A stretch of 64,000 bases of DNA from Lytechinus pictus. Lineage: Eukaryota. Every line of letters starts with the position of its first letter. Within the stretch, counting starts at the first letter, position 1. The stretch spans positions 29,638,001-29,702,000 of the forward strand of contig NC_087251.1 of NCBI RefSeq assembly GCF_037042905.1, in the 5' to 3' direction. Both the position numbers and the translations under genes were made by a program. Of the stretch, positions 17,601 to 46,864 are shown in pieces. The notes beneath the pieces were generated by a model, which searched no databases, was not told the origin of the DNA, and saw only the letters and a program-made list of their open reading frames with translations.

Positions 17601-19399
17601 AGAAGGAGGTGGAGAAAAATGAGGTGGAGAAGAAGAATTACTTTCAGGTTAAAAGTAATATTCAACTCGTGCTTCGCACTCCCATTGCATGTTTAATAAT
17701 TGCGTATCCTATTCATGAGGATTACATGGTACAAGAGCGTATAATGAGCAAAAACTTAAGGGGGCAGACAACGCGTATTTAAACAATTTTCTATTAAAAA
17801 AGTTAACTAGTCAATACCATGACCTTGCCAAGCGAGGGTGCTTGGGGTGAAGCACCCCTAATATTTTTTTTCTTGGGTGATGCGTATGTTTTACACCATA
17901 TATGCAGCACCTCCTGGACGTCAAGTTGGTATGTTAAAATGCAGCAATTTGACCAAAATATCCTTTACTTTAGAGAAAAAACTTGTTTTCTCACAACAGC
18001 ACCCATCAGCCCCTTTTAAATAATCGTTCCCATTTATGCCCCATGGACATAGGCCCAATTGATCTCCCAGCACATTTGTGCTTTTCAAGAGTTTATTTTA
18101 TGAGATAAATTGATCACAAAGCGTTGAAAACTACCGTCTTTAGGTCAGAAAATATATTTCAAAAAATCAGCTCACTTACGCTTCGCGCTTGCTTGATACT
18201 GTTTATAGTGAGTTACGTATCCTGTCCATGGATTTCTGAAAAAAAAGAAAATCCTGAAACGTCCCATTTTCAGGTCAGTATAGCAACTTCTCCAACTCGC
18301 ACCTTGATTATTGCACTTAACAACATATGTTATAAAGGAGATTTCATCCTGTGAGATTTTTCAAGTAAGTACAATCATTTGTACAAAATATTTCGCCTTT
18401 CTTACAAACAAATTAGGCTATAAATATTTAAAGCATACTTATGACTACCCCCAATTAATATCGGCTCTTCGAGCCGCCTATCGTGATTATGACGATTACC
18501 CCCTATTGGATAATGTTGGATCTGCACCTGCTGATGACCGGGATGATGCTGATGATGATATGATGATGATCATCATCATGGTCAATGATCGTGATATAGT
18601 TGTAGATAGATAAAGAGTTAAGAAAAAAGAAACAAATTCAAACAATTATAAACAATCATTGGTAAGGGAATGCTTCGCGCTCGCATTGCCTTTTAGGTGA
18701 TTTACATATCTTGCTCACTAAATAGGCTGATATGTAGCTTAAAATATCAAGTTTTGAAGTCAATATACAAAGTATATTTCAGCTCATGCAGACATCGAGT
18801 TTTCAATATTTTGTTTGATTTACAAATTGATTTTTCAAAGTGCTATGTAAAATGTCCGTTTTATGTTGTGAATATCATTTGCAGCTTTTTGTGCTGTGTG
18901 CTCGCATTATTTGATTTGCCAAGTAGGCCTACATATATTCATTATTTATTCCATAAGATTTTTTTATATACACAACAAAAAAAGTAAGTACCCCCTTAAA
19001 CAAACATCAATAATTTCCGAACCAATGCGAGTTTTTAATATAATTTTACATGAGCGTGTAGGTAATTTTATAAGCTATCCTCTGAGTAAATGTTAAGGAC
19101 GTATTTTACGTCATGCTTCAGTGAGCATCGTCAAAAGGCAAAAATGTCACTTTTCAAAAGTCACAAGCCAAATATCATTGCTTTGATTCCATTTTATTGG
19201 AACTAATTCCACATTCTCATCATGAAAAATAGTCAGAAGGCTTGTAAAAGGTACTTTCTAAAAGACGATACAACTTTTTTGGCTAAATTTCACGGTTGAA
19301 TAAACACAAGTCCAAATTTGCTATAATTGGATTTTTTACACATTTCCATCAATAGAAATGCTAGAATATGATGACAGTTATTTTGGGGAAGAGTATCTT

Positions 19400-29100: not shown

Positions 29101-29805
29101 GTTTATGAGATTATTACACTTTCATGTTGTTTTATAAGAATGAAACTAAGAAATTACTGTTAGGACATGGGCGTTTTGCCCCCCCCCCCCCCAAAAAAAA
29201 AAAAAAAAATTCACGACCAAGAAAAAAGGATACGGGTGAAATACAGGCCTATTTTTTTCCAAGTTTTATGTAAAAATCTATCACAAACTTTGATTTTTGA
29301 AATAAAAATGTCAATTTTGCACAATACGCCGTATATCGAGCCCCCTCAAAATTGTTGGCTCATTACGCCACTGGGACAACTTCTTATAAACAAACAAAAA
29401 TCAACTTTCAGCGGCCGATTAGGGAAAATATGGGTGAACATAAATTTCGGGCCCCCTATTGGCAGAAGCTAGATCCGCCCCTGTCTGTTGAAATGGATGG
29501 ACCCTGTGAATAGATCATGATCATCGTGAAAAGGAGGCGTGAATTTTTTGCCTGCTTATTATAGTCCCAGGCTTAAATGCCCGTCGCAAGAACGGTTCCC
29601 TGTTACATATCAATTAAGCTATTCAAGTCTTATAAAATGTTCATTTTGAATATAATTCACACAAAAATCAAATCCATAACATAGGTCAATTCAGAAGTTT
29701 TGTAAAATGAAGGCGCATGATCCCTAGCTGGAATCATATAAGATTGGGTAAGAAAAACATTTTTTTCCTTTTTATTTGTCTACTTGTTTTACCCCAAACC
29801 TGTAC

Positions 29806-29863: not shown

Positions 29864-29919
29864 ATGGAAGGGAAACAGAAGAGAAAACGAACGAAGAAGG
29901 AGAAGAAAAAGAAGGCAGA
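29864..29919 (+). CDS. RBM34: RNA-binding protein 34 (Nop12-like) exon 1; join(29864..29919,32856..33009,33899..34195,38258..38317,40980..41023,41702..41785,42334..42394,42734..42895,44106..44210,44636..44803), 396 aa
   Basis: MEGKQKRKRTKKEKKKKA, basic N-terminus like that of RBM34; donor GA|GTAAGT in phase 2, which matches exon 2. Confidence 0.75.
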
Positions 29920-32855
29920 GTAAGTTCAAATACATTCGAGAACAAGGATGAATCCAAGACTTATTAATGAGCCGTGCGAGTTACTTCAATACCAATATTC
30001 ATTTGCCATTTTCATGCCCGTTTTTACGATGCGCATACCGGTACATCCTGCATGCCTACCGATAGGCGATACGGGCAACCAGCGGGGCAGCGACAGTGCA
30101 GTGGAGGGGGAGTGGAGCTCGAGTGTGAGCATTGTCATTGACGTCAATGACGAGTGTATGGATGGAGATTGAGATGAGAGGGTGGGACACTCACACAACA
30201 TGCGAGGTTACTAACCTCGCATAACGCATGTGATTTCATAGTGCATTTTGACGTTTTCATTCATCACACGAATGTCAGGGAATGAAACACGCCAAAATTG
30301 GCAAAAAGTTCAACATATTTCCTACTCCTAGGCTAAATTATAGTATGACCTATGTACGTAATTTAAAACAATCTCTTACTCTTACTTAGTCTTAGCTTAG
30401 TTTTTTAAATTCATTCGAAATTATTTGTAAAAATGATTTTTTAATGCTTACCTCCAAATTTCGGCCAAGATACTCCGTCTGTCCAAGTACTGCGGTGGAA
30501 ATCACGCAAACAACAATTGAAATGCGATTTTTCCTATCGAACAGTCTCGATTTAAGTCGTTGGCGCATAGGAAATTGTAGGAAAAAAATCAACAGGTTGC
30601 ATGTCATGTACCGGTATATACTTATAGGTAAAGTACGCCATCTTTTGACAGATGATGATGAAAGTGGATTGAACGAGCAAGAAAATAATGCTGAGCGCCG
30701 AGAGGCTAGAATGCAGCTAGCAGTACAAGCTGCAGACAAACGGTACAAACCGGCATATGAATAATATCGCGCGCCCTCTTTAGGCAAAAATTGATATCCA
30801 CGCTGATCAGGAGGCATCTACATGAAGATCAAGCAAAAATCCTTTTTTTTTTTTTTTTAACAAAGAGAATTCAACAAACGATCCATATGATTCGGTAAGT
30901 GTCATAGCACAATTAGAAATCTTAGCTATAATGGTATGTCATAGTTATTTGAGCAAAAAGGGTGTGAAAGATTCGCGTGCACCAGGTGCATATGAATCCT
31001 TCGCACGCGAGATGAATTGAACCCATGGGTGAGGGTGGGATGGAGTTTCACTTAATGCATGCAGCAGTAATATTAAAAAGGTGAGCAGTAGAGACTCCAG
31101 TCTGAAACATGGAAAATAAGGATCATTCTAGACCAAAAGCTTTGGTCTCTGACTGACTATTTATTTCCGCTGAACTTCGTTGGCTCCACTCACCAAATAC
31201 AGAGACCGAAGTTCTAACTCGATCTGTACAGGGACTCAACGGACAATGGCCATATGTTTATACAGTTCGGATAAACCAAGGAAGTGGGAGTTGCGCGACA
31301 GCCGAAGTAAATCACTGTTTTTGTCCTTTTCCCGTTTTGGTGCATTTCAGGCCAAAACGGAATAATAAACTTTGTCTTTATTTTGGTCCAGTTCTTTTTA
31401 TTTATTTTTATGAAATAAAGACAAAAAATTGATGAGCCCCTTGGGGGATTTTGCATTGTTAACCCCCTAATGGCGGCTGCACGATCGCGAGCCGTCTGTG
31501 TACGAGGAGAAATTTTAAAAAAATTTTAAAATGTTAAACTCCTCGAAACAGACGGCTGCCAGCTGTCAAGGATCATTCCTGATTAGACTTGAGGACTCTG
31601 TCATTTAAAAAATATTTTTACATTACATAGACTCTATACTTTTTCATCTTGGAGCCTTGAAACCCTTGCCATACATGCATAAGCGAGACCTATACACGCG
31701 AATGGATTTCCCTTGGAAATCCATATTTAGAGATTGAAGTCGGTTTGTTTTTCTTTATTTAATTTATTTATGACCCTTCATACGCCTATTGCGTATGAAG
31801 GGATTAAAATTATTTTAGTATAAATATGCAAAATGAAAGGTTTCTTACCAGACCGATCTCGTGTAGATCCCTAGATCCACTTGTAAACATCGCAAATATA
31901 ATAGGCTTGACCCTTGTGTTACAGTGTTACAGTGTTACAAAATGCTGTTTTGAAGAACAATTTATAGATGAAAATTATTATTTAACAGATAATAACATTT
32001 GAAACTTGATTATAAATAACTATTATAATAAAAATTATCAAATTGGTTGTGCCCTTTTTCAAAAGTTTTTCTGAGTGCTGTTATGGTCGACTATTATTTT
32101 AACTTCAAGTTCAAACAATTTCTAATATTTTAGTAATTGCATGGAGCTACTTAACTAGCCATAGGATAATAGTAAGACAAAATAAAGTATAGAAGTATAC
32201 ATAATGAAACAATAAGACATCAATTACATCTTTGTTTATGATACTGGGGATTTGCTCAGCGATGTTTCTTCATCATAACTTATTATCAGGTTTTTTTTTT
32301 TTTAATCCCTCAACATTCATTGTGATAACAAATTAGAGCAGTAGGAATAATCGCACATGCAAATGTACATTGGTCATTATTAGAACCAGTGAGTTGAGAG
32401 ATAATTCCCTGAATTCCCTGTTAGAACCATGTGACTGTATATGCCCGTGGATTTTCATCTCACCGGAAGCATGTACCAAATGACGTCATGTAAGCACGTT
32501 TACGATCATGGTCCTGTTTATACTTCCCCAGAAACCCTGATTCTGGTCAAAACGACGTTTTGAAACACACCTTTTTGTAAGTTTACGATCGGTGTACTGA
32601 AACGTCGTTTAAATGAAAACAAGCATGGACGCAACCGTGTTTTGGACTAATCACGTATGAAATTAAAACGCTGATTCTGCCCTAAAAAGAGGAAGCATAA
32701 ACATGCCCTTAATTTGTCTTGGAGATATCCTGGAATTTCCAATTGAAACTAATTGCAGAACTAGAAATGTTCCATAGAAGTGCTTCCACTTTCTAAGAAG
32801 ATGTAAAATTAAGTATACTTATGTGATGATTCTTTGAAATTTGTTGATTCTAAAG

Positions 32856-33009
32856 CAACCAATCTGGAGACGACTATGTACCAGGCAGCATTGCTAACTT
32901 TCTAGGATCAGACCATGATAAGATGGACCAGCATCAGTCGGGATCCAAAGCACTGTCTTCTTTCTTTCAGCCCTCTATGATGTCAAAGCAAAGTGCTTTT
33001 CCAAGCAAA
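32856..33009 (+). CDS. RBM34: RBM34 exon 2
   Basis: ctaaag| ...DDYVPGSIANFLG...KALSSFFQP...K|GTAAGT; resembles the RBM34 'DYxxGxVaxxLF...LaSLF' segment. Confidence 0.8.
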
Positions 33010-33115
33010 GTAAGTGTGGGTGTACAAACTTAGGCATAAATATAAACAGATTTACTATTCTAAGAAGACTAGGGGCCCTATTCCTAAAAATTCATATTCA
33101 GGTACTTGTCTAGTA

Positions 33116-33457
33116 CAGACCTGCCAACCAGTACGTTTTAGCCGTATTTAGTACGTTTTTGCAACCAAAATACGGCAGTACGTTTTTTCTTTGAAAATAC
33201 GTTTTTTTTTACTAAATCGTAATTTATTGAGAAAAATAATCTCTATATACCTCTATTTCATAAAACGTACACAAATATGGTTAATAGATCAATGTAATTT
33301 CAGGTAACTTTTTTTTTCAATCATTTTGTTAAAACCAGTGTGAAGATATACACATGTTTTAATGGTTTTTTTTTCATCTGCAAGAGCAGTGCCCGAAAAA
33401 TACAGTTTTTTTTTATCACAGAATACAGTTTTTCATTCCTAGAGGTTGGCAGGTCTG
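33116..33457. mobile_element. hAT-like MITE with 6-bp TSD
   Basis: CTAGTA|CAGACCTGCCAACC...GGTTGGCAGGTCTG|CTAGTA; a related short copy lies at about 41173-41301. Confidence 0.8.
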
Positions 33458-33898
33458 CTAGTAGGAATTGTTTGGTCACTGGTGTGCAATGGGGGAGGCT
33501 GGGAGGCCATGGACTCTCCAAAATTTTCTCAACCAAGAAAAAAAAATAGGAGAAAAAGGAGTGAAATATAATTCTATATGCCATTTCTGGCTCCCTCTAA
33601 ATTTTTTTGTTCATTAATGAAATGTTAAAAAATAAAAATAAAAATAGAAGTCCAGTGGATGTGAGAGATCAGCACAGGCCAAAGAACCATGAAGGCTTGT
33701 CTCCCTATTTTTTACATTTTGACAGATGTAAAACAAAAATATAGAAAAATGACAAACAACTGTAAAGTGGCTTCCCTGTATACAGTACTGATCAAGCTTT
33801 TCAAGCAGATCAAGCTGGCACCAAATCCATTCTGATATACCAAGAGGAGGGCAAACATGTGATGGTTAATGTATTCTCAATGTCTCTAACCTTCATAG

Positions 33899-34195
33899 GC
33901 AGGCAAAGATGCACCCAAAGGAAAAGTGACCAAAGATAAAACCAATATAGAATCCAAATCAGAAGAAGAGACTTTTGATGAAGGAGAAACTAAGATACTC
34001 TTGGACGAAAGTAGACTTGATGGTGAACTTTCTGAGGAAGCAGAAGTGAAGGATCTGAAACGAAAGGCACAAGATGACGATGATGAGGATGTTGGTCCTA
34101 AGAAGAAAAGGAAGCCACTGCAAGAACCAATGGATCCTGCTGTGCTTGATAGGACGGTATTCGTCGGCAATCTGCCTGTCAACATAAAAAAGAAT
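33899..34195 (+). CDS. RBM34: RBM34 exon 3 (acidic/basic region, start of RRM1)
   Basis: catag| ...PKKKRK...LDRTVFVGNLPVNIKKN|GTAAGT; RNP2 VFVGNL. Confidence 0.9.
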
Positions 34196-34401
34196 GTAAG
34201 TCACTTTGTTGCTTTCATCACTTTCGGTTCACACTTACTCTGATGTACGGACATCAGTCCTCTCTTTTGTAGCAGGACAACCTACACTGGGGATAAGTTC
34301 TATTAATCTTTGATTACTTGTCATCTACAATTCCCAAGATCCTCTTTCTTCTTGCGTACTCTTTCCAGTAAAAAGTGATTAACGTTTTTTTTCTCCAGAG
34401 T

Positions 34402-36520
34402 ATAATAATAATAATTACTTCTTATTAAGCGCTTTTTCAAAAGTTACAAAGCGCTGTACAAATGACAAAACAAATACAATCGGTGAAAACTTAAAACAAA
34501 ACTACACAAAATGAAACACTACTTGCAATATATTAAACATGTTAAAACAAATGAGATTTAAGCATCTTCTTAAACACATCAATAGAAGAACATTGTCTAA
34601 GTTTATGGGGTAATCTATTCCAATATTTGGGGGCAAACACAGAAAATGACCTATCACCTACTGATTTGAATGTTCGGGGGATTTGAAGAGGGATTTGTGA
34701 TGATGACCGAGTGTTATACATTGATTGGCGAACTGTTAGGAGGTCTGACAGGTATGATGGAGCTTGATCATTAAGACATTTGAATGTGATAGTCAGAGAC
34801 TTATGCTCAATTCGATTTTTTACTTTCAACCAGTGTAATTCTCTTATCAGGGGGGTTGTCTGTGTATATGATGGTTGACAGTAAATGACCCTAGCTGCTT
34901 TATTTTGTAATTTCTGAAGACGATCTAGGTTCTGAGAGGTGACACCATTATAAAGAGAATTACAATAATCTAATCTAGATGTAACCAGCGACCTAACAGC
35001 AGTATGACATGTATCATTATCAATAAACTTTCTGATTCTATTAATATTTCGAAGGTGGTAGTTAACTGACTTAGACACACTAGTAACTTGATCTGACATT
35101 GTCATATGTTTATCTAGAACACAACCAAGAATACGAATAGAGTCTGATGACGATCTCTTTATTAATTTTAAGACTTCTTCATCAGTTAAAGTGCAAAACT
35201 GTGATAGTTCACAAGGGGGATCTGGTCCTGATGCAAAATTGTCCAAAGGTGCCGCATTCTGATCATCAATAAGACGACGAATGTTTTTGATCTTCGAAGT
35301 GAAGTATCTGCAAAATGCATTGGCCAATTTACAAGAAGATGATGTGTCTGGTAGGACATGTTCATTCCTGTTTAGGAGCATATTAATGGATGAAAAGACT
35401 TCACGTGGAGAGTTCGAGGACAGAGACTCTTTGAGATAATCCTTTTTGGCTTCACATACAGTGGACCTGACCATATCTTGAGCCATTTCATATTGAACAA
35501 GGTCATCATTGGTTTTAGACTTTCGCCACTTCCTTTCTGAACGTCTTCGCTGACGACGAGCATCATCTACAGCAGCATTGTACCACTTTGGGCGATGACG
35601 AACACGAGATGAGCATGTAGATAATGGTGCATGCCGATCAAGCACCTCTGTTGTTACCATATCGATTTGTTGAACCAATAGATCAATGTTCCCTTCAAAA
35701 TGTACATCGGATAGCCTGTTGAGTAGATCAGCCTCAAATATGTCATGATCAAGTGTTCCAAACTTCCTGCGTTGCAATGACGTCCTAAGTGGGGGCGGTT
35801 TAGGGAGGTTTACATCTACAGATATGACTGCATGGTCAGACATACGATTGTCTATTACCCGTGTTGCGTGGACAGTTCCTTCAGATGATCTTGAGATAAC
35901 AAGATCCAATGTGTGACCCCGTCTGTGTGTTGGTCCAGATACATGCTGGGATAGTCCAGATGATGAGAGAATCCGTATGAAACTTGCTACATCCTGTTTG
36001 TCTGGGCAGTCAAAATGAACGTTAAAGTCGCCCAGTAAAACAGGCTTACCAGGATTCAAATTCAAATGGTCTACGAAATCTTCAAAATCAGACAAGAAAC
36101 CTGCTGTAGTCAAATTATTCACATTCGATGGTGGAGGCCTGTAAACGACAGCATAGTTGACAGTCCGTGACACATCTGATATAAGCGCATACTCAAATGA
36201 CTGAATGTTTAGTGTATGCTCAGAAAGGTGACGTAGTTTTAGATGTGACTTGAAGAGTACACCAAGTCCACCACCCTGCCTTCCATCAGCACGCGGGATG
36301 CTAATGAAAGAGTAACCTGGAAGTGTCAGTTCTCCAGTCACTACTGTATCATCATCACGTAGCCAGGTCTCACATAGGAAAAATATATCAACATTATGTT
36401 CAAGGGCAAAATCACAGAATAAAACAGTCTTATTTCTAATTGACTGAGCGTTCCAAATACAGACATTAAGTCTGTTCTTAAGTGATGAGGTGTTCTTCGT
36501 AGGAGAGGCAACCGCCGTGT
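34402..36520 (-). mobile_element. L2-clade LINE, APE endonuclease ORF open, RT core deleted in frame
   Basis: WNAQS, LCETW, VYRPP, GDFNVH, TLDLV, SDH; junction LIKRSSS/DSIRILGCVLD near 35145; C-terminus SRLDYCNSL, LHWLKV, GDRSFSV.APKYWN.LP; L2 3' stem-loop AGCGCTTT..AAAGCGCT and (TAT)n tail at 34402-34455. Confidence 0.9.
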
Positions 36521-36541
36521 ATGTAATGAATATGATGTATA

Positions 36542-38178
36542 GGGGAGACCGGGGTTAGTTGGAACGTGGGGTAAGTTGAAACATTGTAATTTTCTTTAAT
36601 GTCTTTAAATAAATTTCTGCAATACTGCCCTCAATTTATTGTTATTATCAACAGCCATCCACCATATTACAGACAACACATGTGCAACAAGCCTAGTGAG
36701 ATTAGAAAGGAATTTTTGTTTTTTTGACCTTCTGAGTAATTTTTTTCTCTTTCAGAAATGTTTTATTATTTCAGAGAAGTTTATAGATCAAGCTGGCCAG
36801 TTTGGGGGTATGATAGACACTTGTACCAAGCTACAAAATGAGGTTATTAATATGCCATGGTGAAGTCCCTTTTTTGTGCTCTAAGCTTATAAACATCAAA
36901 GGGGCTAGTTGGAACATGTTCCAACTTACCCCAAACATAATAATGAATAAAAATATATGAAATATTTCACACTCTTCTGAACATGTATTGTATACCATGC
37001 TTGTTTTGTTTATCGGTTAGGTCTGAGTGTGCATTTAAGGCTTATTGTAGGCCCCTAATGCAATATTAACCCTTATCAAACCGGGGGGGGGGGGGGGGTC
37101 AATTTGAGCCTTCCCTCGAGAAATTTGGTCACTTCGCCGTCGCGCGAGATATTTTTACTACACTGCTCGCTGACTTTTTACTTTCAAGTCTTGCGCATCA
37201 TTTGAGACCAAATTTGCGATGCCTGTGTGCGCGGTTTCGAAATTACGCAACATTTTGTATGTGCATGTCGGACCCAAAATTGCTCAAAAGCGTGATTCCA
37301 TGTACAAGGTCAATGCAAATTGTGTTTTTCAACCAAAATTCATAAATGTATGATTATTTTTTACTTTTGTTGGTTCAAATAGATTTATTTTATGCTATCT
37401 ACGATCGCAAAAGAGTCGAGACAAAGTTCATCGGAAAATACAAAGGTTCGAAAAAACAAAGAAATACAAATAAAAAAAACAAAAAATACATAAGAAATTT
37501 TATTTTTTGCAATTTTTGTTGGATATTCGTTTTAAAAGTGAAAATTGATACTCTCACCAAAGATTAGCATTCTACTACGTTAATGAATAGAGTTAAAGGC
37601 AAAACATTAAAAAAAAACAAATTTAGGGCAAATTTCATATGCTTATTTGCATAATTAATTAATGTAAAATATAAACAATTAATTTTTGTCTTGTAAATTT
37701 GATGCAGAAGTACACGAAATTGCTGATAGTACACTTAATTGCATATGTAAAATCAAACGCACCCAAATATGCGGAATTCTACTACACAGTCTGCTTGCGT
37801 GAGTGGCTGTATAATAGAAAACATTAAGTTCAACAAATCCACACTTCAAATATTTTGAAATAGGCTAAAACCATGTAATATTACAGTTTTAAGTAGTTTT
37901 AGTATAATTCTTAATTGACCATGCAGTGTTCCATCTTACCCCATACCATGTTCCAACTTACCCCGTATTGGGGTAAGTTGGAACGTTTGCGATGGTCTTG
38001 TTCAAGGGGGATTTTTTCAGTAACCATAATAGAGTTAAATATTTTATGGGGTACATTTGAAGCCCTTAGATATATGCTTCAAGCTGATATATTGGTTGTT
38101 TCTAGAATAAAATCTATTTGGATTTTACAGCCATTTTTGTCAAAAATGTTCCAACTACCGGTAACCCCGGTCTCCCCT
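36542..38178. mobile_element. Tc1/pogo-like non-autonomous element (TA TSD) with a nested piggyBac-like insert starting at 37070
   Basis: TA|GGGGAGACCGGGGTTA...TAACCCCGGTCTCCCC|TA; repeated GGGGTAAGTTGGAAC motifs. Confidence 0.75.
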
Positions 38179-38257
38179 ACATATTTTTTTGTTTTGTTTT
38201 TTAGATTGATTGCATTCTCTTCCTCTTTTTTCCCTTCAAATATAACCATATGAACAG

Positions 38258-38317
38258 GAGCTTAAAGGACTCTTCAAAAGCTATGGCACAATAGAAAGTG
38301 TACGTTTCAGATCCATG
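38258..38317 (+). CDS. RBM34: RBM34 exon 4
   Basis: aacag|ELKGLFKSYGTIESVRFRSM|GTAAGA; IESVRFRS is characteristic of RBM34/Nop12 RRM1. Confidence 0.92.
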
Positions 38318-39089
38318 GTAAGAATACATAAATATTTCATGCTGATATGTGATCTTCAAGCAAGATATTTTTCAAATTTTTTCAAATTTTGTATGGGATG
38401 ATTTCACAATGCTTTATTACATGTCTTTTTCACAGTCAGGGTGTAATTTCTACCTTCTCTGTCAAAATTTCAACAACAAAAAAAATAGACAAACATTTCA
38501 ACTTTAATCTTTACTAGTAATGGCCAAATTATGGATTTCTATTTGTTTTGCAGCTTAAACTATTTTGGAAACTTGGAAAAAAATAATGATAAACTGTGAC
38601 AAATGTGATAAATTTTAACAAAAACATCATTTTATTGTAATTGCTCAAATGACAACATTTGTTTAAACATATTGCAAGGGCCATTTTTCATTTGCCATTT
38701 TAAATTTCTTATAAGCTTGGAAAGCTTTTTTGGTCAAACCTGTTTGGTTAAAAGAAATTATTGAATGCATTTTTCAAATTCAATGTAAAATGTGACTTAA
38801 ATATCTTAATCTTTGAAATAAATCATCTTTCAAAAATGATGTCAAAGTGAAAGTTATACCATTTAGTTAGGTGTACTTACCAATGCAGAACGAAAAAGTT
38901 GAAAATTTTTTAGGCATGTGTCTCAAATGCTTCAGTTAACATAATTAATTGTTTCGTAGACTCTAACTCTGTTTTATTACATAAGTCCCACTATTTAGTG
39001 TAATACTTGCACAAATCTCAATTGATCTCATGAATAATGAAATAAAAAAACTTATTAAAAATGATAACATGAATATTCAAGTTATTTAT

Positions 39090-40260
39090 CAGGTAAAAAG
39101 ATTGTCATAAGGTCATATTTTTCAATTCCATGGAAGTCTTTCTTTAACAAACTCCAAAATCGGTTTAATTGGATTGTCTTTTGGTTAAGAATTTAGCTGT
39201 GGTTATGCAACACAACAAATAAAAGGAAAGTTTTGTGAATACTGCTTCAACAATGTACCAAAACTGCTCCCCAGAAAAACTTACATCAGCAAAGACTGCA
39301 GCTTTCTTGTACTTGTCTGGTTTACATAGCCATCATTTTTTTACCAGAAGTTTAACTTCTAGTCCCCTGACTGTGTTCAGAAAATTGTGTGCAATGTGCT
39401 GAAAGTGTTCAACAATGCGGTGGTCATGTGTCAGATCATCAGGAAGCATGACTTAGGAATCTCTCGTGAATTTGCCATTTGAGGGATCAACATAGTAGAC
39501 AACTATTGGATGCACTGTAACTTTTTTTCACCCAGTGGGCAGACTTTATATCATCGTGGTATTTGGCAGAGAAGTTTCTTCCAAAGTCCTGTATCATCAT
39601 GACGATTCCTGGTATCTTTTGCTCCTTGACTGCCCCCTTCAATACCTTTTCTATCTGGTAGATCTGCCAATAAGCAGTAAGCAGATTAGAGATGAACGAC
39701 ATTCCTTTTATTGGTGAAATCACATCCTGAAAAATCTCATCAGTAACCTTATTGGCAGTACCTTTTTTTTTTTGGTTGTAAGGACTTGTCGACCGGTTTC
39801 TGTCTCGACAAACTTCCCAATTTCTTTCTTTGTCAATGTCATCTTGTTCATTTCTTATTTCTCCTATGATACTGATCCTCTCCCACTGTGTCTATGAATG
39901 GGGCATAAAAGGTCTTCATGGTTCTTTCAAGGCTGTTGCTTTTACAACAAATTCCATTCACACATCTTGGTTTGTGAAACCCATTCCTATCTGGTTTCTC
40001 ACAAGTCAGCATATTGTTCAGCTCCTTTTCATCACTGATTCTGCTGTCTTTCAACTCTTCTTCCTGCTTCATCGATCCGATTTGGTAATCTATTGCTCTC
40101 AGCTTCTCCTGGATGTTCACACAGTACACACAGAAAATAACATTTTGAAAACCACTGTTCGGAATACAAAGTTTGTTAGCTATTGTTAAAGGAAAATGAA
40201 GCCTCCGAAACAAAAAATTGGAACACCCCGTTCTCAGAAATAAAGAAGCAGTCACACTAA
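39090..40260 (-). pseudogene. decayed Sola2-like DDE transposase
   Basis: MIQDFGRNFSAKYHDDIKSAHW..HPIVVY; DDLTHD; DGY..QYK; upstream Cys cluster (PRCVNGICCK); several stops and frameshifts. Confidence 0.6.
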
Positions 40261-40979
40261 AAAACCTATCTGGTATTTTTCATTGAACATCTAACTTTAC
40301 ATTCTGCATAACAAAAGTAATCCTTGACATTCCAGAAATAATACAGGGCATTATGAAAAAGTCAATGTATTTCATGTACAAAAAAGAGGTGCAATTTGGG
40401 TACTAAAGTGCCTGCCAAAATTAAACAAAGTAATGAGTGAAGATGTCTATGCTAGCCAAGGTAGCATATAAGTAGGTTACTCATATGCCAAAATATATTT
40501 GGATTCTGTGTTTTATGAGATCACTAGAGATAAAAACGTTGAAATTTCAGAGTTACATCCTTTACTGTGAAAATGACCATATAAGTTGATCCCTAGCTTC
40601 AATCTGCTTTTTAAAGCATTGGTAGTTACAATACAGGGGTGGTATTCTGATATCCATTTTATCCATTTCAGGTATTTAGCCTTGAAATCTTTCCAAATCA
40701 ATTATAAAAAAATGAAAACTTAAAAAAAAGTGTTTAAATATGCACAGTCTATGTAACAGTAGAAACGATGATCATGTGATCGGCTCTCGACCAATCATTT
40801 GATTAGGATCCATATATCCATTCTATAAGCTGTATTGGGAAATTCTGTGTTCTTCTTGAATTCCATGAACGTGATTTTCTGTTTTCTGTATTGTTGAAAA
40901 CAGACGACTTAACTATAAAAAAAAACCATACATTTGAATAATGATAATAAATAATTTTGTATGTTTTAATTACTTTCAG

Positions 40980-41023
40980 GGTGTAGCTGATCCCAGCATG
41001 TCAAAGAAAGTAGCAGCAATAAA
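40980..41023 (+). CDS. RBM34: RBM34 exon 5
   Basis: tttcag|GVADPSMSKKVAAI(K)|GTAAGT, ends in phase 2. Confidence 0.88.
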
Positions 41024-41701
41024 GTAAGTTGATAATCACCGTTGGGGCATCCATACTTTAATTATAAAATGATAGATCATAAAATAAACACCCACACAAT
41101 TTTTTTTCATCTTTTTCATCTTGTTTGAATATGATGTTAAATGACCTTTTATGAAATAATTCATAGTAGGTCCAGGCCTGCCAACTGTCCCGATTTTCAA
41201 CTTTCAACTAAAATCCAGGAGCTCTGTCCTTGAACCCCACCAGTGGGTAGTTGGACACCCGGCCATTGGTTGTCCAGATTTTCTAACTGTTGGCAGGTAT
41301 GTAGGGCTGAGTCATGTTGGGAATTGTTCTTTTTTTTAATTGAAATTTGGATGGCTTCTTACTGTCAGATTCCAGTATTTGCCTTTGCCTAGTCTGTTGT
41401 GCAAACCCTTCACGTCATCTGAATATGCAGCATAAGGTGAACAGAATCCCCTTACGTTCATTGAATTTGAAAAAGCAGGGTTGTATTTGTACTAGTCTTG
41501 TGTTAAGACCCAGTTGTTGATCAAAGTTACAATCAAAATATTCAAGTCTTCCAGCATCACAAAGTCAGGCCTAATACTTAACATCCCATTGACATGGATG
41601 TTAAATACCCATAAATGCTGACTTTTATAAGTTTGCCCCAACTTCTTTTTTTCAGATTCTAAGAAAATTTGAATTTGGTTTATCATTTACGATTTAATTA
41701 G

Positions 41702-41785
41702 ACAGGAACTGAATCCCAAGAGAACATCCTTCAATGCTTATATTGTCTTTGAGGAAGAGAAGTGTGCCCAAGCTGCTTTAGAAAG
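41702..41785 (+). CDS. RBM34: RBM34 exon 6
   Basis: attag|QELNPKRTSFNAYIVFEEEKCAQAALE|GTATTA; NAYIVF is the RNP1-like motif. Confidence 0.88.
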
Positions 41786-42333
41786 GTATTACACTTGAAG
41801 CTAGTGGTAAATACACTGAGCAGTAATTAAGAGAGGGGCTGTTAAAGGAAAAATATGCTGTAATCTGAAGTTGATTATGGAAAATAAAATAGGACAAGAT
41901 TACAAAATGAGCTGTGACCCTACAACCCCTTAAGCAATTTTCATAAAAATAGTGCCACAAGATGCACACAAAAAATTGTCTAAATGATTACATGATGTAG
42001 ATGGTCATGGATTAATCATGAATCTTGTGCCAGGGGGGGGGGCATTAACTTGAAGTTTGATTTCATGGTTTACATCATGAGAAAACCTAGCAAATTAGAA
42101 AGATGTGGTGACCCCATAGAGTCCATGATTTATCAAAGTTAAACCAGAGTTCAAAATGTCTAAAGGGGCTTTCCTGTTTGTTTTGGATTGTCACTTTACG
42201 TATAGTTTAAAGTTGTTCTTGTGTCACAAATGTAACCAAGTATTGGCAGTTTGACAGAAATTATCAAAAAGATTGACAACAATGTAAATGCTTCAATGTT
42301 TGTGTATTACAATCTCTTCTCATTCATTGACAG

Positions 42334-42394
42334 CAATGGCAGGCTAGTGAACAAACATCATATGAGAGTGGATATAGCAAGCAACAACAAGAAG
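42334..42394 (+). CDS. RBM34: RBM34 exon 7
   Basis: gacag|NGRLVNKHHMRVDIASNNKK|GTATGA. Confidence 0.88.
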
Positions 42395-42733
42395 GTATGA
42401 AAAACAGACAAATTTGGGTCACATTGGAAATATGTAAGAGGAGAATTGAAATGTTAAAATAGGGGAAAAGAGGAAGAAAGAACCAACAAATAGTTTTGAA
42501 GAGAGAGAACTATGTCATGGAACCATTCAATACCCATTATTTAATTATTTACATCATCTGTAAAGTGCTTTAATAAAGAATGTCATTGAGATGCTCTTTG
42601 ATTGTGATAATCTCTATATTTAAGCAGAGTATTAGTATTATTGTTTAGAATAAAATTAGAGTCACTTCATGTGGAATATTCTTTGCATCCCATTGATATG
42701 AATCATTTTTTTTTCATCATTTCTTTATTGTAG

Positions 42734-42895
42734 CATGACATGAAGCATTCTCTGTTTATTGGTAACCTCCCCTTCAACATTGACGATGAAGCCGTCAGAA
42801 ATCACTTTCAGGAGTTTGGAACTGTTCAAGGAGTGAGGCTCATCAGAGACAAAGCCACTGGAATGGGAAAGGGCTTCGGATACGTGCTCTTTGAG
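42734..42895 (+). CDS. RBM34: RBM34 exon 8 (RRM2)
   Basis: tgtag|HDMKHSLFIGNLPF...VRLIRDKATGMGKGFGYVLFE|GTAATC; RNP2 and RNP1 motifs. Confidence 0.93.
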
Positions 42896-43003
42896 GTAAT
42901 CTTTGTAAGCCTAGATCGATACGATGTGATAAAGCTGGGTAACATTTTTAAAAAATTGTTCAGATACTGTGGCATAAAGCTGTATGTAATACCCAATGCA
43001 TTA

Positions 43004-43422
43004 AGGCCACCCCACACCCTATGACCCGACCAGTCTACGACTAGCTTGCGACTAAGTAGGGGAGATGTGACGTCACAGCTCTTGTTAGCTTGAGAGTTGC
43101 AGACCGGTTAGAGACAAACCGCAAGGAAACTCGTTAGGATTTTACATGTTGAATCCTTACAACTGGATCACAAGCTCAATCCAATTTTCAGCCAATCAGA
43201 CTGCAGATTCGCACATAAATACTGACGCATACTCGAAGTGCAATGCGCATACGCAGTAGTAAGCGTCATTTTCTCAGTTGCGAAGGCAAAGCAAAAAGCG
43301 CATGCATGAGTTGCAGACAAAAGGGTAGTCAGACCGCAAGGTGTGCGGTGTCGAGGTTTATGACTACCTTGCGATTCATGTTCCCTCACTCGGTCGCAGA
43401 CCAGTCGGGTGTGCGGTGGCCT
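43004..43422. mobile_element. PIF/Harbinger-like MITE (TTA TSD)
   Basis: TTA|AGGCCACCCCACACC...GGTGTGCGGTGGCCT|TTA. Confidence 0.75.
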
Positions 43423-43470
43423 TTACGTGCTTCAATTCTTATGTCACTTTCCCACCAGGGAAACTGACCC

Positions 43471-43670
43471 CAGGGCCCTGTCATAAAAAGAGTTACAACT
43501 GATCCAATCAACCTCTACTGTATGGAAATCCATCAATGTTATGACTTTTTTTTCTCCTAATATATAGCATGTCTAGAATATTTTAAAAGAAACCTGCATT
43601 GCAAATGTTGATGTTGCTGGCTTTCCATAGTTGTGGTTGATCCGATTAATCACAACTTTACGGAGCCCAG
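43471..43670. mobile_element. small palindromic MITE (Harbinger-like, decayed)
   Basis: Imperfect inverted arms (ATCAACC..TATGGAAA / TTTCCATAG..GGTTGAT), GGGCCC-like ends. Confidence 0.45.
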
Positions 43671-44105
43671 ATCAACAAAATCTATTACATTATTTCTAAT
43701 GACATAGCATCAGTGGGACTGGCGTCTGTTTCGCTGGTGTGAATGTGGAGCTAAAGTTGATCCTAGAGTTGTTCAAGCAAATTCATAACACCATTATGAT
43801 TTCATTATGTTATTATTGTTACCTTTAATGTAGGAAGGAAGTCCTCTGCAAAGAAATGCTCTTCTGATACCCTTTACCTTCAAAATATGACCAAACAAGA
43901 AAAAAAGCGGAAATGTTTTGGCAAAATATTTTTGTATAATCCCATACACATATTTCATTGACATGGTTGAATGAATGAATGAATGAAATTGACGGTTTGA
44001 AAATATTGCCACAACGCTTATTGTTGGATATATTGTGATCAACATCACTGTGCTAGAGTATGAAATGCAATTTCAGTCTCTTTCTATTTTCTCAATTCAA
44101 AACAG

Positions 44106-44210
44106 GATTCTTCTTCAGTCGAGTTTGCATTGAAGATGGATGGCAGTAAACTGAAAGGAAGATCACTGAGAGTGAAAAGAGCAGTCAAGAAAGAAAAACA
44201 AAAAGAACAA
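44106..44210 (+). CDS. RBM34: RBM34 exon 9 (end of RRM2)
   Basis: aacag|DSSSVEFALKMDGSKLKGRSLRVKRAVKKEKQKEQ| followed by U12 donor ATATCCTTT. Confidence 0.88.
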
Positions 44211-44635
44211 ATATCCTTTACAATACAGTTCTCCTTCTGATTAGACCTAGTTCTGATGATTAAATGGGCTCCATAAGGATAAATGATGATGGTGATGGTA
44301 GTGATGATGATGATAAAGTTGATGGTCAGTGCCTTGGTGAGATGATCATGTGAATTTAAAGTGATGGTGGTGATGATGGTAGTGATGATGATGATTATGA
44401 TGACTGTGATGATTGTTGATGATGATGATTATGATGATGACGATGAGGATGATGGTTATGGTGATGGTGGTGGTGATAGTGATGATAGTTATGTTAATGA
44501 GTATGGTAATGATGGTGCTGATGTTGATGATCATGATTGCAGTGGTGGTGGTGATGATAGTGAGATGATGATGAAAGACGGTTATATCCAGCTCGTAAAA
44601 ATGTGCAAAGTAATTTCTTTAACAACCACCTTCAC
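44211..44635 (+). other. U12-type (minor spliceosome) AT-AC intron
   Basis: 5'ss ATATCCTTT; branch site TTTCTTTAAC at 44614-44623; 3' end TTCAC| 13 nt after the branch A; phase 0 join is in frame. Confidence 0.8.
44283..44573. repeat. (GAT/GGT)n degenerate trinucleotide microsatellite inside the U12 intron
   Basis: Long run of gatgatgat / ggtgat units. Confidence 0.9.
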
Positions 44636-44803
44636 AGAGATTCTAATACCAGGGGTAAGAGTGTTCATAGGAGGAGTAACTCCAAATCAAGAGGCGGGTC
44701 AGGATTCCAAGGAAAAGCAGGACCCCGAAGGCCACAGTCCAAGGGTAAAGTGAAAAGGAAGCAGAAGGCTGGAGGAAGCCACAAAGGCAAGCAGAAGAGG
44801 TGA
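44636..44803 (+). CDS. RBM34: RBM34 exon 10 (basic R/K/G-rich C-terminal tail)
   Basis: RDSNTRGKSVHRRSNSKSRGGSGFQGKAGPRRPQSKGKVKRKQKAGGSHKGKQKR*; FxG motif plus basic tail as in RBM34/Nop12 C-termini. Confidence 0.75.
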   Translation, partial: RDSNTRGKSVHRRSNSKSRGGSGFQGKAGPRRPQSKGKVKRKQKAGGSHKGKQKR

Positions 44804-45139
44804 TACCTTCATGGATTACTTGGAGCACAAAATACAAAAAATAAAAAACAAACTGAGAGATATAGATGAAAGTGAAGAGAATATAGAAGCCTGGATGTAG
44901 CTACAAGGACAAGCTGAAGAAACGTTTTCAAGGATTCATTAGTCTCCTTGAAACACTATGACATCCCAGGGGAAATTATGTACTATGCTCATTTCTAGTG
45001 ATAAAGAGCACACTGGAATCATGAATCAGCAAGCGATCTTGGCTTAAAAGTGGTTTGTGTGATGTGATTACCATATCTTAATTAAAAAAATAAGCCAAAT
45101 CTCAAGCAAATCCTCCTCTGACACAAATACACAGATCGA

Positions 45140-45960
45140 TCAAGCCTCTTTTTTTTATTGTTGCAAGCCTCCACGTCTCGAACACAGTTTTCCATAGACA
45201 CAATACCTTCAGAAAGATCATTCTGTTGCATAACGATGTACAACTGTGTATCATATAACATGACTAATACCCTTGTGGGCTGCAATGACATCACTCAAAG
45301 GGCCAATAACTGAGTCCTGATGTACTCTCCAGCTTAGAAGATATTCATCAGATAGAGCTCCATTAACGACGACTATTTACTTCCGGTTCTTTAGGTATGA
45401 CTTCAGCCATTTAAGAGTAGTGCATCCTATGCAATTTCTTTGACTGCAGCATTGGATCTTCATGTCATGGTCGATAGTATTGAATGCTGCTGAATAATCT
45501 AGCAACACTAAGATGGCCTCCTGTCCTTTGTCTAATGCCGGCAAAAGACCATTTGAGACCCAAATGAGTGCGGATTATTTGGAATGACCATCTTGATATG
45601 CTGACTGCCTAGGAGGAAAGGAGGTAACCTAGTACGTAGCTGTCTGACAACAATAAGTTCTCATAGAAACATCTGGTATGTGATTGGTTGATACTTTGCC
45701 ACGTTCTCTACATCCAGCCGAGGCTTTTTCAGGATTGGTTTACCATGTGAAATCTTGAATAAGGATGGGACAATTCCTGAAGTAAGTGAAGAATTCACAA
45801 GCTTTGTTATGAACGGCATGAGTACATCAAGACATTTCTTGAAGAGCCAGGTGGGGGCTGGATCAAGTTGACAAGATTTAGATGGACTCTCCTTGATAAC
45901 CTTGATGATGTCATCCTCAGACAGAAGATTGAATTTTAAGAATGAAGCATGATCAGTCTC
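45140..45960 (-). mobile_element. decayed L2/CR1 LINE RT fragment
   Basis: PSKSCQLDPAPTWLFKKC..PILKKPRLD; SAYQDGHS; LVLLDYSAAFNTIDH; YDTQLY; many stops and deletions. Confidence 0.75.
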
Positions 45961-46864
45961 ACAGAATTCAATTAGATTCTTGAAGTTTCAATAAAAAGAG
46001 ATGTGCGATAAAGTTACGTCAATTTAACTAATCTTCCTTTTTCCGAATGCATCAATAACCAAATGAAATTAATCTTTTATAGTTATACTATAATAGATTT
46101 ATGTATCTTGCTCGCAAGAAGGTAACCAGTGAAGTAACAAGTCAGCCACATATTGCGATTCCTTGGCTGAACAAGGAACCAAATCATGGTTTTAAATACA
46201 TTTCCTCAAATCGATATTATACCTAGGCATTTATAAATCGTAAGAGATTTGATCGAATAAGGTGGTATTTAGTCAGTTTTCTCCAACTTCCTGGTTCCAT
46301 AGTTTGGTATATAAAAGTTGATGCAGGATGAAGGTTTTATCAGTAGGACATAGGCAGAACCATTGTCAATGGAGTTTGATTAAGATATTAACTAAATTTT
46401 TTTTCTAATCCAAGGTTAATTTCAGCAACATAATTGGCTATTTCTATCAGTCATATGAAGTCATACCTTTCATGATAGAAAAGGCAGGCTGATCACGAGC
46501 TCTCATTTTCCACTCTTCTTGGGAACCCTTTTCTCTAACTGGAAGGCAAAGCTGCACACCAAACATTTTACTCTTGTAGCTTTATTTTGGTCCTTAGTCT
46601 AAAAGCCTCTTCTATCTCTTCTTTCATTTGTAGGGGTATTTTGGTTCACCTACACTTTAGATTTTCCTTCTCTCTTTCCCCCTGTGGAGCTAGTTGATGG
46701 ACTCACTGTTTTCTGGTTGTTAAGGTAGTGACTTTGTAACTTCCGCTGATTCTCTGGCACTAGCTGCCTCCTCAATTCTTTGCATATCTAGCAGGGATGA
46801 ACTTTGAATTTCCTTTGTTCTCACATTTTTCCACTCTGCTTGGGAACCCTTTTCTCTAACTTAA

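Follow-up and report, generated by a model that had tools for sequence, protein, structure and literature searches.

The present analysis examines the RBM34/Nop12-family gene of Lytechinus pictus in a window of 64,000 nucleotides and finds that its last coding intron is a U12-type AT-AC intron spliced in RNA. Direct observations are the splice signals, the junction in RNA, the genes of four minor snRNAs, and no retention in the runs examined. Taken together they most likely describe a U12-type AT-AC intron of an ordinary kind that was passed down from the bilaterian ancestor and is efficiently removed, such that one full-length RBM34 is made. The initial annotation had recognized the intron and had also proposed that its retention acts as a switch toward a protein without the basic tail; the first part is upheld here, whereas the switch is not, as no retained reads were seen against 27 spliced ones.

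Gene model and splice signals

The gene occupies 29864..44803 of the + strand with 10 coding exons (Table 1), and the RefSeq protein XP_063958493.1 (RBM34-like, Lytechinus pictus) is the letter-for-letter translation of this model, which bears out the numbering of exon 9 used previously. Two RRMs are present in the predicted protein, with family-level identity to named RBM34 proteins. The gene is single-copy, with one strong match to exon 8 in the 812-Mb genome; a second copy as the origin of the RNA reads was considered and rejected, the three other matches to exon 8 having only 33–37% identity. Introns 1–8 all start with GT and intron 9 is the exception. As had been described from the sequence, exon 9 has no convincing GT and runs directly into the U12 donor ATATCCTTT, a branch site lies 13 nt before the acceptor, and phase 0 splicing joins exon 9 to a last exon whose translation is rich in R, K and G. 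The window's translation also agrees with the earlier statement that read-through adds nine residues before a stop.

Table 1. Coordinates of the RBM34 coding exons and of features in and around intron 9 (window positions)
Feature	Position	Strand	Evidence or remark
Coding exons 1–5	29864-29919, 32856-33009, 33899-34195, 38258-38317, 40980-41023	+	
Coding exons 6–10	41702-41785, 42334-42394, 42734-42895, 44106-44210, 44636-44803	+	
Exon 9	44106..44210	+	End of RRM2 plus 12 residues; model and RNA
U12-type AT-AC intron, 425 nt, phase 0, last coding intron	44211..44635	+	Junction in 4/4 runs, and signals
U12 5' splice site ATATCCTTT	44211..44219	+	Directly after exon 9; pairing with U6atac and U11
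Weak GT, in-frame GT-AG bypass with AG 44636-44637	44228..44229	+	Fits L. variegatus RefSeq model
In-frame TGA if intron is retained (9 added residues)	44238..44240	+	Translation of the window
Degenerate TGA triplet repeat, 70 copies, 67% matches	44362..44574	+	Common repeat in the genome
U12 branch site TTTCTTTAAC	44614..44623	+	Branch A 44622, 13 nt from last intron base 44635
AC acceptor	44634..44635	+	RNA junction
Exon 10, coding part	44636..44803	+	55-aa basic tail; 9 R, 11 K, 10 G; net charge +19

The U12 donor consensus is RTATCCTT, and U12 branch sites usually lie 10–20 nt from the 3' end of the intron. The donor of intron 9 matches the extended consensus and is complementary to U11 and U6atac, and the branch motif has one C-to-T departure from consensus that forms a G-U pair with this genome's U12. 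On the + strand the donor 8-mer occurs four times in the window compared with 2.4 times in shuffles, and 4% of 200 whole-window shuffles contained a donor with a branch-AC combination no more than 2 kb away, the pattern having been picked after the site was seen; it is the RNA reads, and not the shuffle statistic, that establish the AT-AC intron. Other U12-like donors at 17958, 55966 and 62349 (+) and at 29233 and 62291 (-) had no supporting exon or nearby branch site and were discarded.

In the minor spliceosome, U11 and U12 recognize the donor and the branch site and U6atac catalyzes splicing, and the same particles would recognize and remove intron 9. Matches above the Rfam cut-off were found in the genome for U12 (4), U11 (3), U6atac (2) and U4atac (2), the best match of each having E <= 6e-14, and these four predicted snRNA genes indicate that the organism has a minor spliceosome. 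Paired with the genome's own snRNAs, the donor reached -6.4 kcal/mol with U6atac and -7.0 kcal/mol with U11, compared with -3.3 or weaker and -1.1 to -6.1, respectively, for the seven GT donors of RBM34, making it the strongest of the eight introns compared with both snRNAs. The duplex of U12 with the branch site did not discriminate, since its -5.6 kcal/mol falls inside the span of -3.9 to -10.0 obtained with the seven GT-AG introns at their 3' ends, so that the branch call depends on motif and position relative to the consensus.

Intron 9 also contains a candidate intronic poly(A) signal, ATTAAA, at 44259, and its TGA repeat has at least 170 look-alikes genome-wide. Highly repeated and abundantly covered sequence at 43003–43690 in intron 8 reached a contig depth of up to ~40,000, had 17-nt inverted arms at 43003–43019 and 43407–43423 and fold-back joints from ~43506 to 43641, and looks like one or two MITE-type repeats. 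A 670-aa stop-to-stop frame on the - strand of intron 3 (34542–36554) looks by eye like a non-LTR retrotransposon having the endonuclease start and reverse-transcriptase end with the middle missing. Fragments resembling the same kind of element lie on the - strand at ~45250–45990, antisense in or just after the RBM34 3' UTR, and stranded reads extend as far as 45510 or beyond.

The junction and intron coverage in RNA

The region 41611–45510 was examined in four of 23 listed runs, namely X21 and X22, which are raw stranded RNA-seq from one study chosen by species label and used at ~6% of each run, and X1 (organism A) and X6 (organism B), which are contig sets presumed to represent RNA. Joints of introns 6–9 were present. 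The three GT-AG joints upstream of intron 9 had 11/12, 6/7 and 19/8 reads, and the joint of intron 9 had 12 reads in X21, 15 in X22 and one contig in each of X1 and X6, so that the junction 44210^44636 anticipated from the sequence was indeed found, in 27 raw reads and two contigs. In all four runs it was listed as 44211->44640 with six intervening letters. This joint resolves to the splice 44210^44636 together with an additional His codon close to the start of exon 10, and this codon occurs in all four RNA runs and in the models of S. purpuratus and L. variegatus, while the window is without it. The codon missing from the window (44636–44645) is either a rare allele or an assembly slip. A micro-exon as the source of the six letters, which by eye are absent from the intron, was rejected because they are accounted for by one added codon in exon 10, as also found in the proteins of S. 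purpuratus and L. variegatus.

An alternative explanation could be that the RNA donors use an AT-AG acceptor and that the six letters belong to a longer allele rather than to an AC junction followed by a codon, given that the letters between the two sides of the joint are not placeable with certainty. This would demand a 5-nt difference that frameshifts the window's own gene, whereas the AC reading demands one in-frame codon, and would not account for read letters after exon 9 that match 44636–44641 exactly or for the AC junction in the current RefSeq model. We therefore consider an AT-AG acceptor scarcely credible. Within the window, AG dinucleotides 2 and 4 nt beyond the AC acceptor, if used, would put exon 10 out of frame and abolish the tail, as would a GT donor within exon 9 at 44172 with either AG, and none of these was among the joints listed.

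It is also possible to imagine that slow minor splicing lets the major spliceosome bypass the site, using the GT at 44228 with the AG at 44636-44637 to give a protein five residues longer with its tail kept. Such a product is in frame in the window, a matching peptide is found in the L. variegatus RefSeq model, and models from Diadema, amphioxus and Mya show similar forms that extend and then rejoin. This GT departs strongly from the U2 donor consensus, however, the joint was not among the stronger ones listed in the four runs, including the X6 contig from organism B, with 15 weaker joints lying outside the list, and models of this kind are the expected output of a predictor forced to GT-AG. 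The bypass is accordingly very unlikely, and the AC junction is taken as the one in use.

Over intron 9, no retained-intron reads were seen against the 27 spliced reads of X21 and X22, both from a single study. Raw depth was 0.15 and 0.12 in 44211–44340 and 0 in 44341–44600. In X22 the depth of the first intron bin is fully explained by a 1-base overhang of the 15 spliced reads, and in X21 ~7 bases are left over after such overhang. The repeat 44281–44489 was skipped in read placement, with the unique intron ends open to reads. The 95% upper bound on retention is 10.5% (0/27) or 16% (1/28). Neighboring GT-AG introns were likewise empty, save for the dispersed repeat in intron 8, and because these neighbors are also at zero a U12 intron removed two-fold more slowly would not show. 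In X1 a depth of 8.2 in the bin 44471–44600 is probably foreign, since part of the TGA repeat falls in this bin and the preceding one has no coverage.

Age and distribution of the intron

The occurrence of the intron in other animals was traced in protein models, where phase 0 translation across a U12 AT donor yields the residues ISF and a GT intron would begin with V. Proteins anchored at the end of RRM2 numbered 361 of 375, very long and unanchored ones being left out, and 60 residues after RRM2 were scanned. ISF was present in 8 of the 361 tails, only at +13 (the older L. pictus model, L. variegatus, the amphioxus Branchiostoma belcheri and the limpet Patella caerulea), +14 (the urchins Diadema setosum and D. 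antillarum) or +18 (two models of the clam Mya arenaria), and nowhere else in 20,495 tripeptide windows. Each of these models has an insert-free relative that diverges at or within one residue of the ISF point and continues into the tail. In Patella caerulea the protein stops 20 residues on, and its distal tail has been assigned to the following gene (P0316, P0371). The I at the start of the insert points to an AT intron start, since phase 0 read-through of a GT intron begins with V. For the beetle Dendroctonus, a partial model departs from the full-length one at +13 and continues with V, suggesting that a GT intron occupies this position through conversion or replacement. Two transcript proteins of the choanoflagellate Salpingoeca urceolata part at +12 with V (P0295, P0373), a match too loose to call, and Lineus, a nemertean, has ISL at +13.

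One transcript of the Salpingoeca urceolata pair looks intron-retaining, of GT type, and an unnamed Logan protein (P0313) ends in VSF and three residues at +15, which could reflect a GT-type U12 donor. The S. purpuratus RefSeq RBM34 models (P0002, P0014) carry 180–250 extra N-terminal residues that by eye resemble a fatty-acid-binding protein and are probably a fusion of neighboring gene models; two Logan proteins of the cluster have 399 aa.

These patterns are consistent with an AT-AC intron that was probably ancestral to bilaterians and persists in urchins, amphioxus and molluscs but no longer in human and mouse, as judged from protein models in a tail region that is poorly alignable, with the site in Mya five residues further on. 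Loss or conversion may then have removed it in the lineage leading to human and mouse, and in a beetle it perhaps turned into a GT intron. Loss and conversion of minor introns are reported to be frequent and de novo gain very rare, and 3'-biased loss mediated by reverse transcriptase is given as a main route (Larue and Roy 2023, PMC10639083); such a bias would suit a last intron such as this one. Alternatively, the intron could be a recent gain in sea urchins, with ISF in other phyla produced by independent gains or chance. Its absence from the human and mouse lists, the lack of ISF among vertebrate-named models in the 361 (which alone proves little) and the difficulty of aligning the tail would all fit such a gain. 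It would leave unexplained why urchin, amphioxus and limpet have the same +13 position and phase and why ISF occurs at no other place in the tripeptide windows, and it runs against the reported rarity of new minor introns (PMC10639083), so that recent gain is highly improbable and common ancestry of the intron is preferred.

RBM34 was not known to the initial annotation as a minor-intron gene, and this is borne out for human and mouse: eight MIDB supplement files contain no hit to RBM34 and do contain PTEN (PMC6717393). Among the best 80 of 404 metagenome loci, none had a U12 donor after RRM2, a selection that favors unbroken coding sequence and is uninformative for animals. RBM34 would join the genes that had a minor intron in early bilaterians but lack it in human and mouse, a known pattern of loss or conversion. 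Read-through of the intron also explains at least eight doubtful RBM34 models in databases that are truncated, padded or split, and ISF at model edges can serve to follow AT-type U12 donors from phylum to phylum where only protein models are at hand. The earlier remark that predictors miss AT-AC introns is therefore apt for eight database models and does not extend to the current RefSeq model, which already has the junction.

The proposed switch and comparison with known systems

Regulated retention of the intron could in principle yield an mRNA that is exported, resists NMD and encodes a two-RRM RBM34 lacking the basic tail, with changed nucleolar localization. The geometry is suitable, with a stop after nine codons and no junction downstream up to 45391, where one X1 contig is gapless from 44640 and so agrees, as far as it reaches, with the earlier claim that no exon junction follows the last coding intron. 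In several phyla the intron sits at the boundary between RRM2 and the tail, and the ATTAAA in the intron could act as a poly(A) signal. The suggestion that the basic tail is nucleolar is plausible: the human RBM34 tail is reported as a predicted NoLS with a score of 0.966, whose validation fell through when the clone failed (PMC2995072). RNA binding could persist in a tail-less form, as yeast Nop12 is reported to bind 5.8S rRNA via its two RRMs (bioRxiv 10.64898/2026.05.22.727207), and the general idea of minor introns as switches is in print (PMC3728624). An older RefSeq model, XP_054759279.1 (351 aa), lacks the AT-AC junction and has the tail-less form.

Against this, that model has a successor with the spliced junction and is read as a prediction error, and intron coverage in the two raw runs was zero beside the 27 spliced reads. 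Read-through peptides share nothing beyond the three donor-encoded residues ISF and differ after them in sequence and length; six of the eight read-through models go on into the tail, and only two stop within the intron, with 10 and 20 added residues compared with nine in the window. The peptide in the window is hydrophobic, with mean hydropathy +1.3 versus -2.1 for the native tail, and hydrophobic C-termini are reported as the kind degraded via BAG6 in human cells (bioRxiv 10.1101/2022.07.20.500724); no conserved product of the retained form was found among these models, and a stable one is doubtful. The truncated protein would moreover keep basic clusters at residues 6–9, 11–14 and 138–142, with a net charge of +12 against +31 at full length, and the minor-intron lists for human and mouse lack the intron altogether. 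Escape from NMD had been put forward for a retained transcript but would not be the deciding gate, as unspliced U12 transcripts are reported to be held in the nucleus and degraded there by the exosome (PMC4066798). On this evidence the switch is decidedly unlikely. Its operation at other stages or under stress is given a similarly small chance. A fuller version, in which eggs, early embryos or stressed cells retain the intron or cut at its poly(A) signal, and tail-less RBM34 binds 5.8S rRNA, leaves the nucleolus and ties ribosome production to minor-spliceosome activity in invertebrates, with loss in mammals, has a low probability indeed. Only the switch, which is unsupported here, would surprise specialists. 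Rather, with an ordinary and efficiently removed intron, the human-cell papers suggest that limiting minor splicing would leave unspliced RBM34 RNA held and degraded in the nucleus; the outcome would be less RBM34 mRNA rather than a tail-less protein, and any control would act on mRNA amount.

That a minor intron can limit gene output is already in print, from work on minor introns as switches set by the level of U6atac (Younis et al. 2013, PMC3728624) and on the decay of unspliced U12 RNA by the exosome (Niemela et al. 2014, PMC4066798), and by default the idea holds for this intron too. In human cells those two papers report decay or a different spliced isoform and do not report a stable protein without its tail; in comparison with these systems, nothing in the sea-urchin gene shows regulation. 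No literature linking RBM34 to minor introns was found, the 15 top-ranked papers on the minor spliceosome do not name the gene, two papers that mention it together with U12 seem to be unrelated, and the supplements of PMC11347168, whose gene-level tables list only responsive introns, had no hit to RBM34; IAOD, MIDB and WtMTA may already list the intron. With yeast Nop12, an early pre-60S factor, RBM34 has in common two RRMs and a basic tail that is poorly conserved in sequence, and by analogy with the reported binding of 5.8S rRNA by the RRMs of Nop12 (bioRxiv 10.64898/2026.05.22.727207) a similar function may be predicted in the sea urchin. The closest likeness is to the U12-type AT-AC introns reported for animals (MIDB, PMC6717393; Larue and Roy 2023, PMC10639083). 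Unlike the MIDB entries, RBM34 as host gene is missing from the lists for human and mouse (PMC6717393), and minor introns are less often in phase 0, reportedly ~22% on average (PMC10639083). Like the catalogued introns, that of sea-urchin RBM34 has AT-AC ends, an extended donor and a branch site 13 nt from its end, stands alone among GT-AG introns, and occurs in a genome with minor snRNAs.
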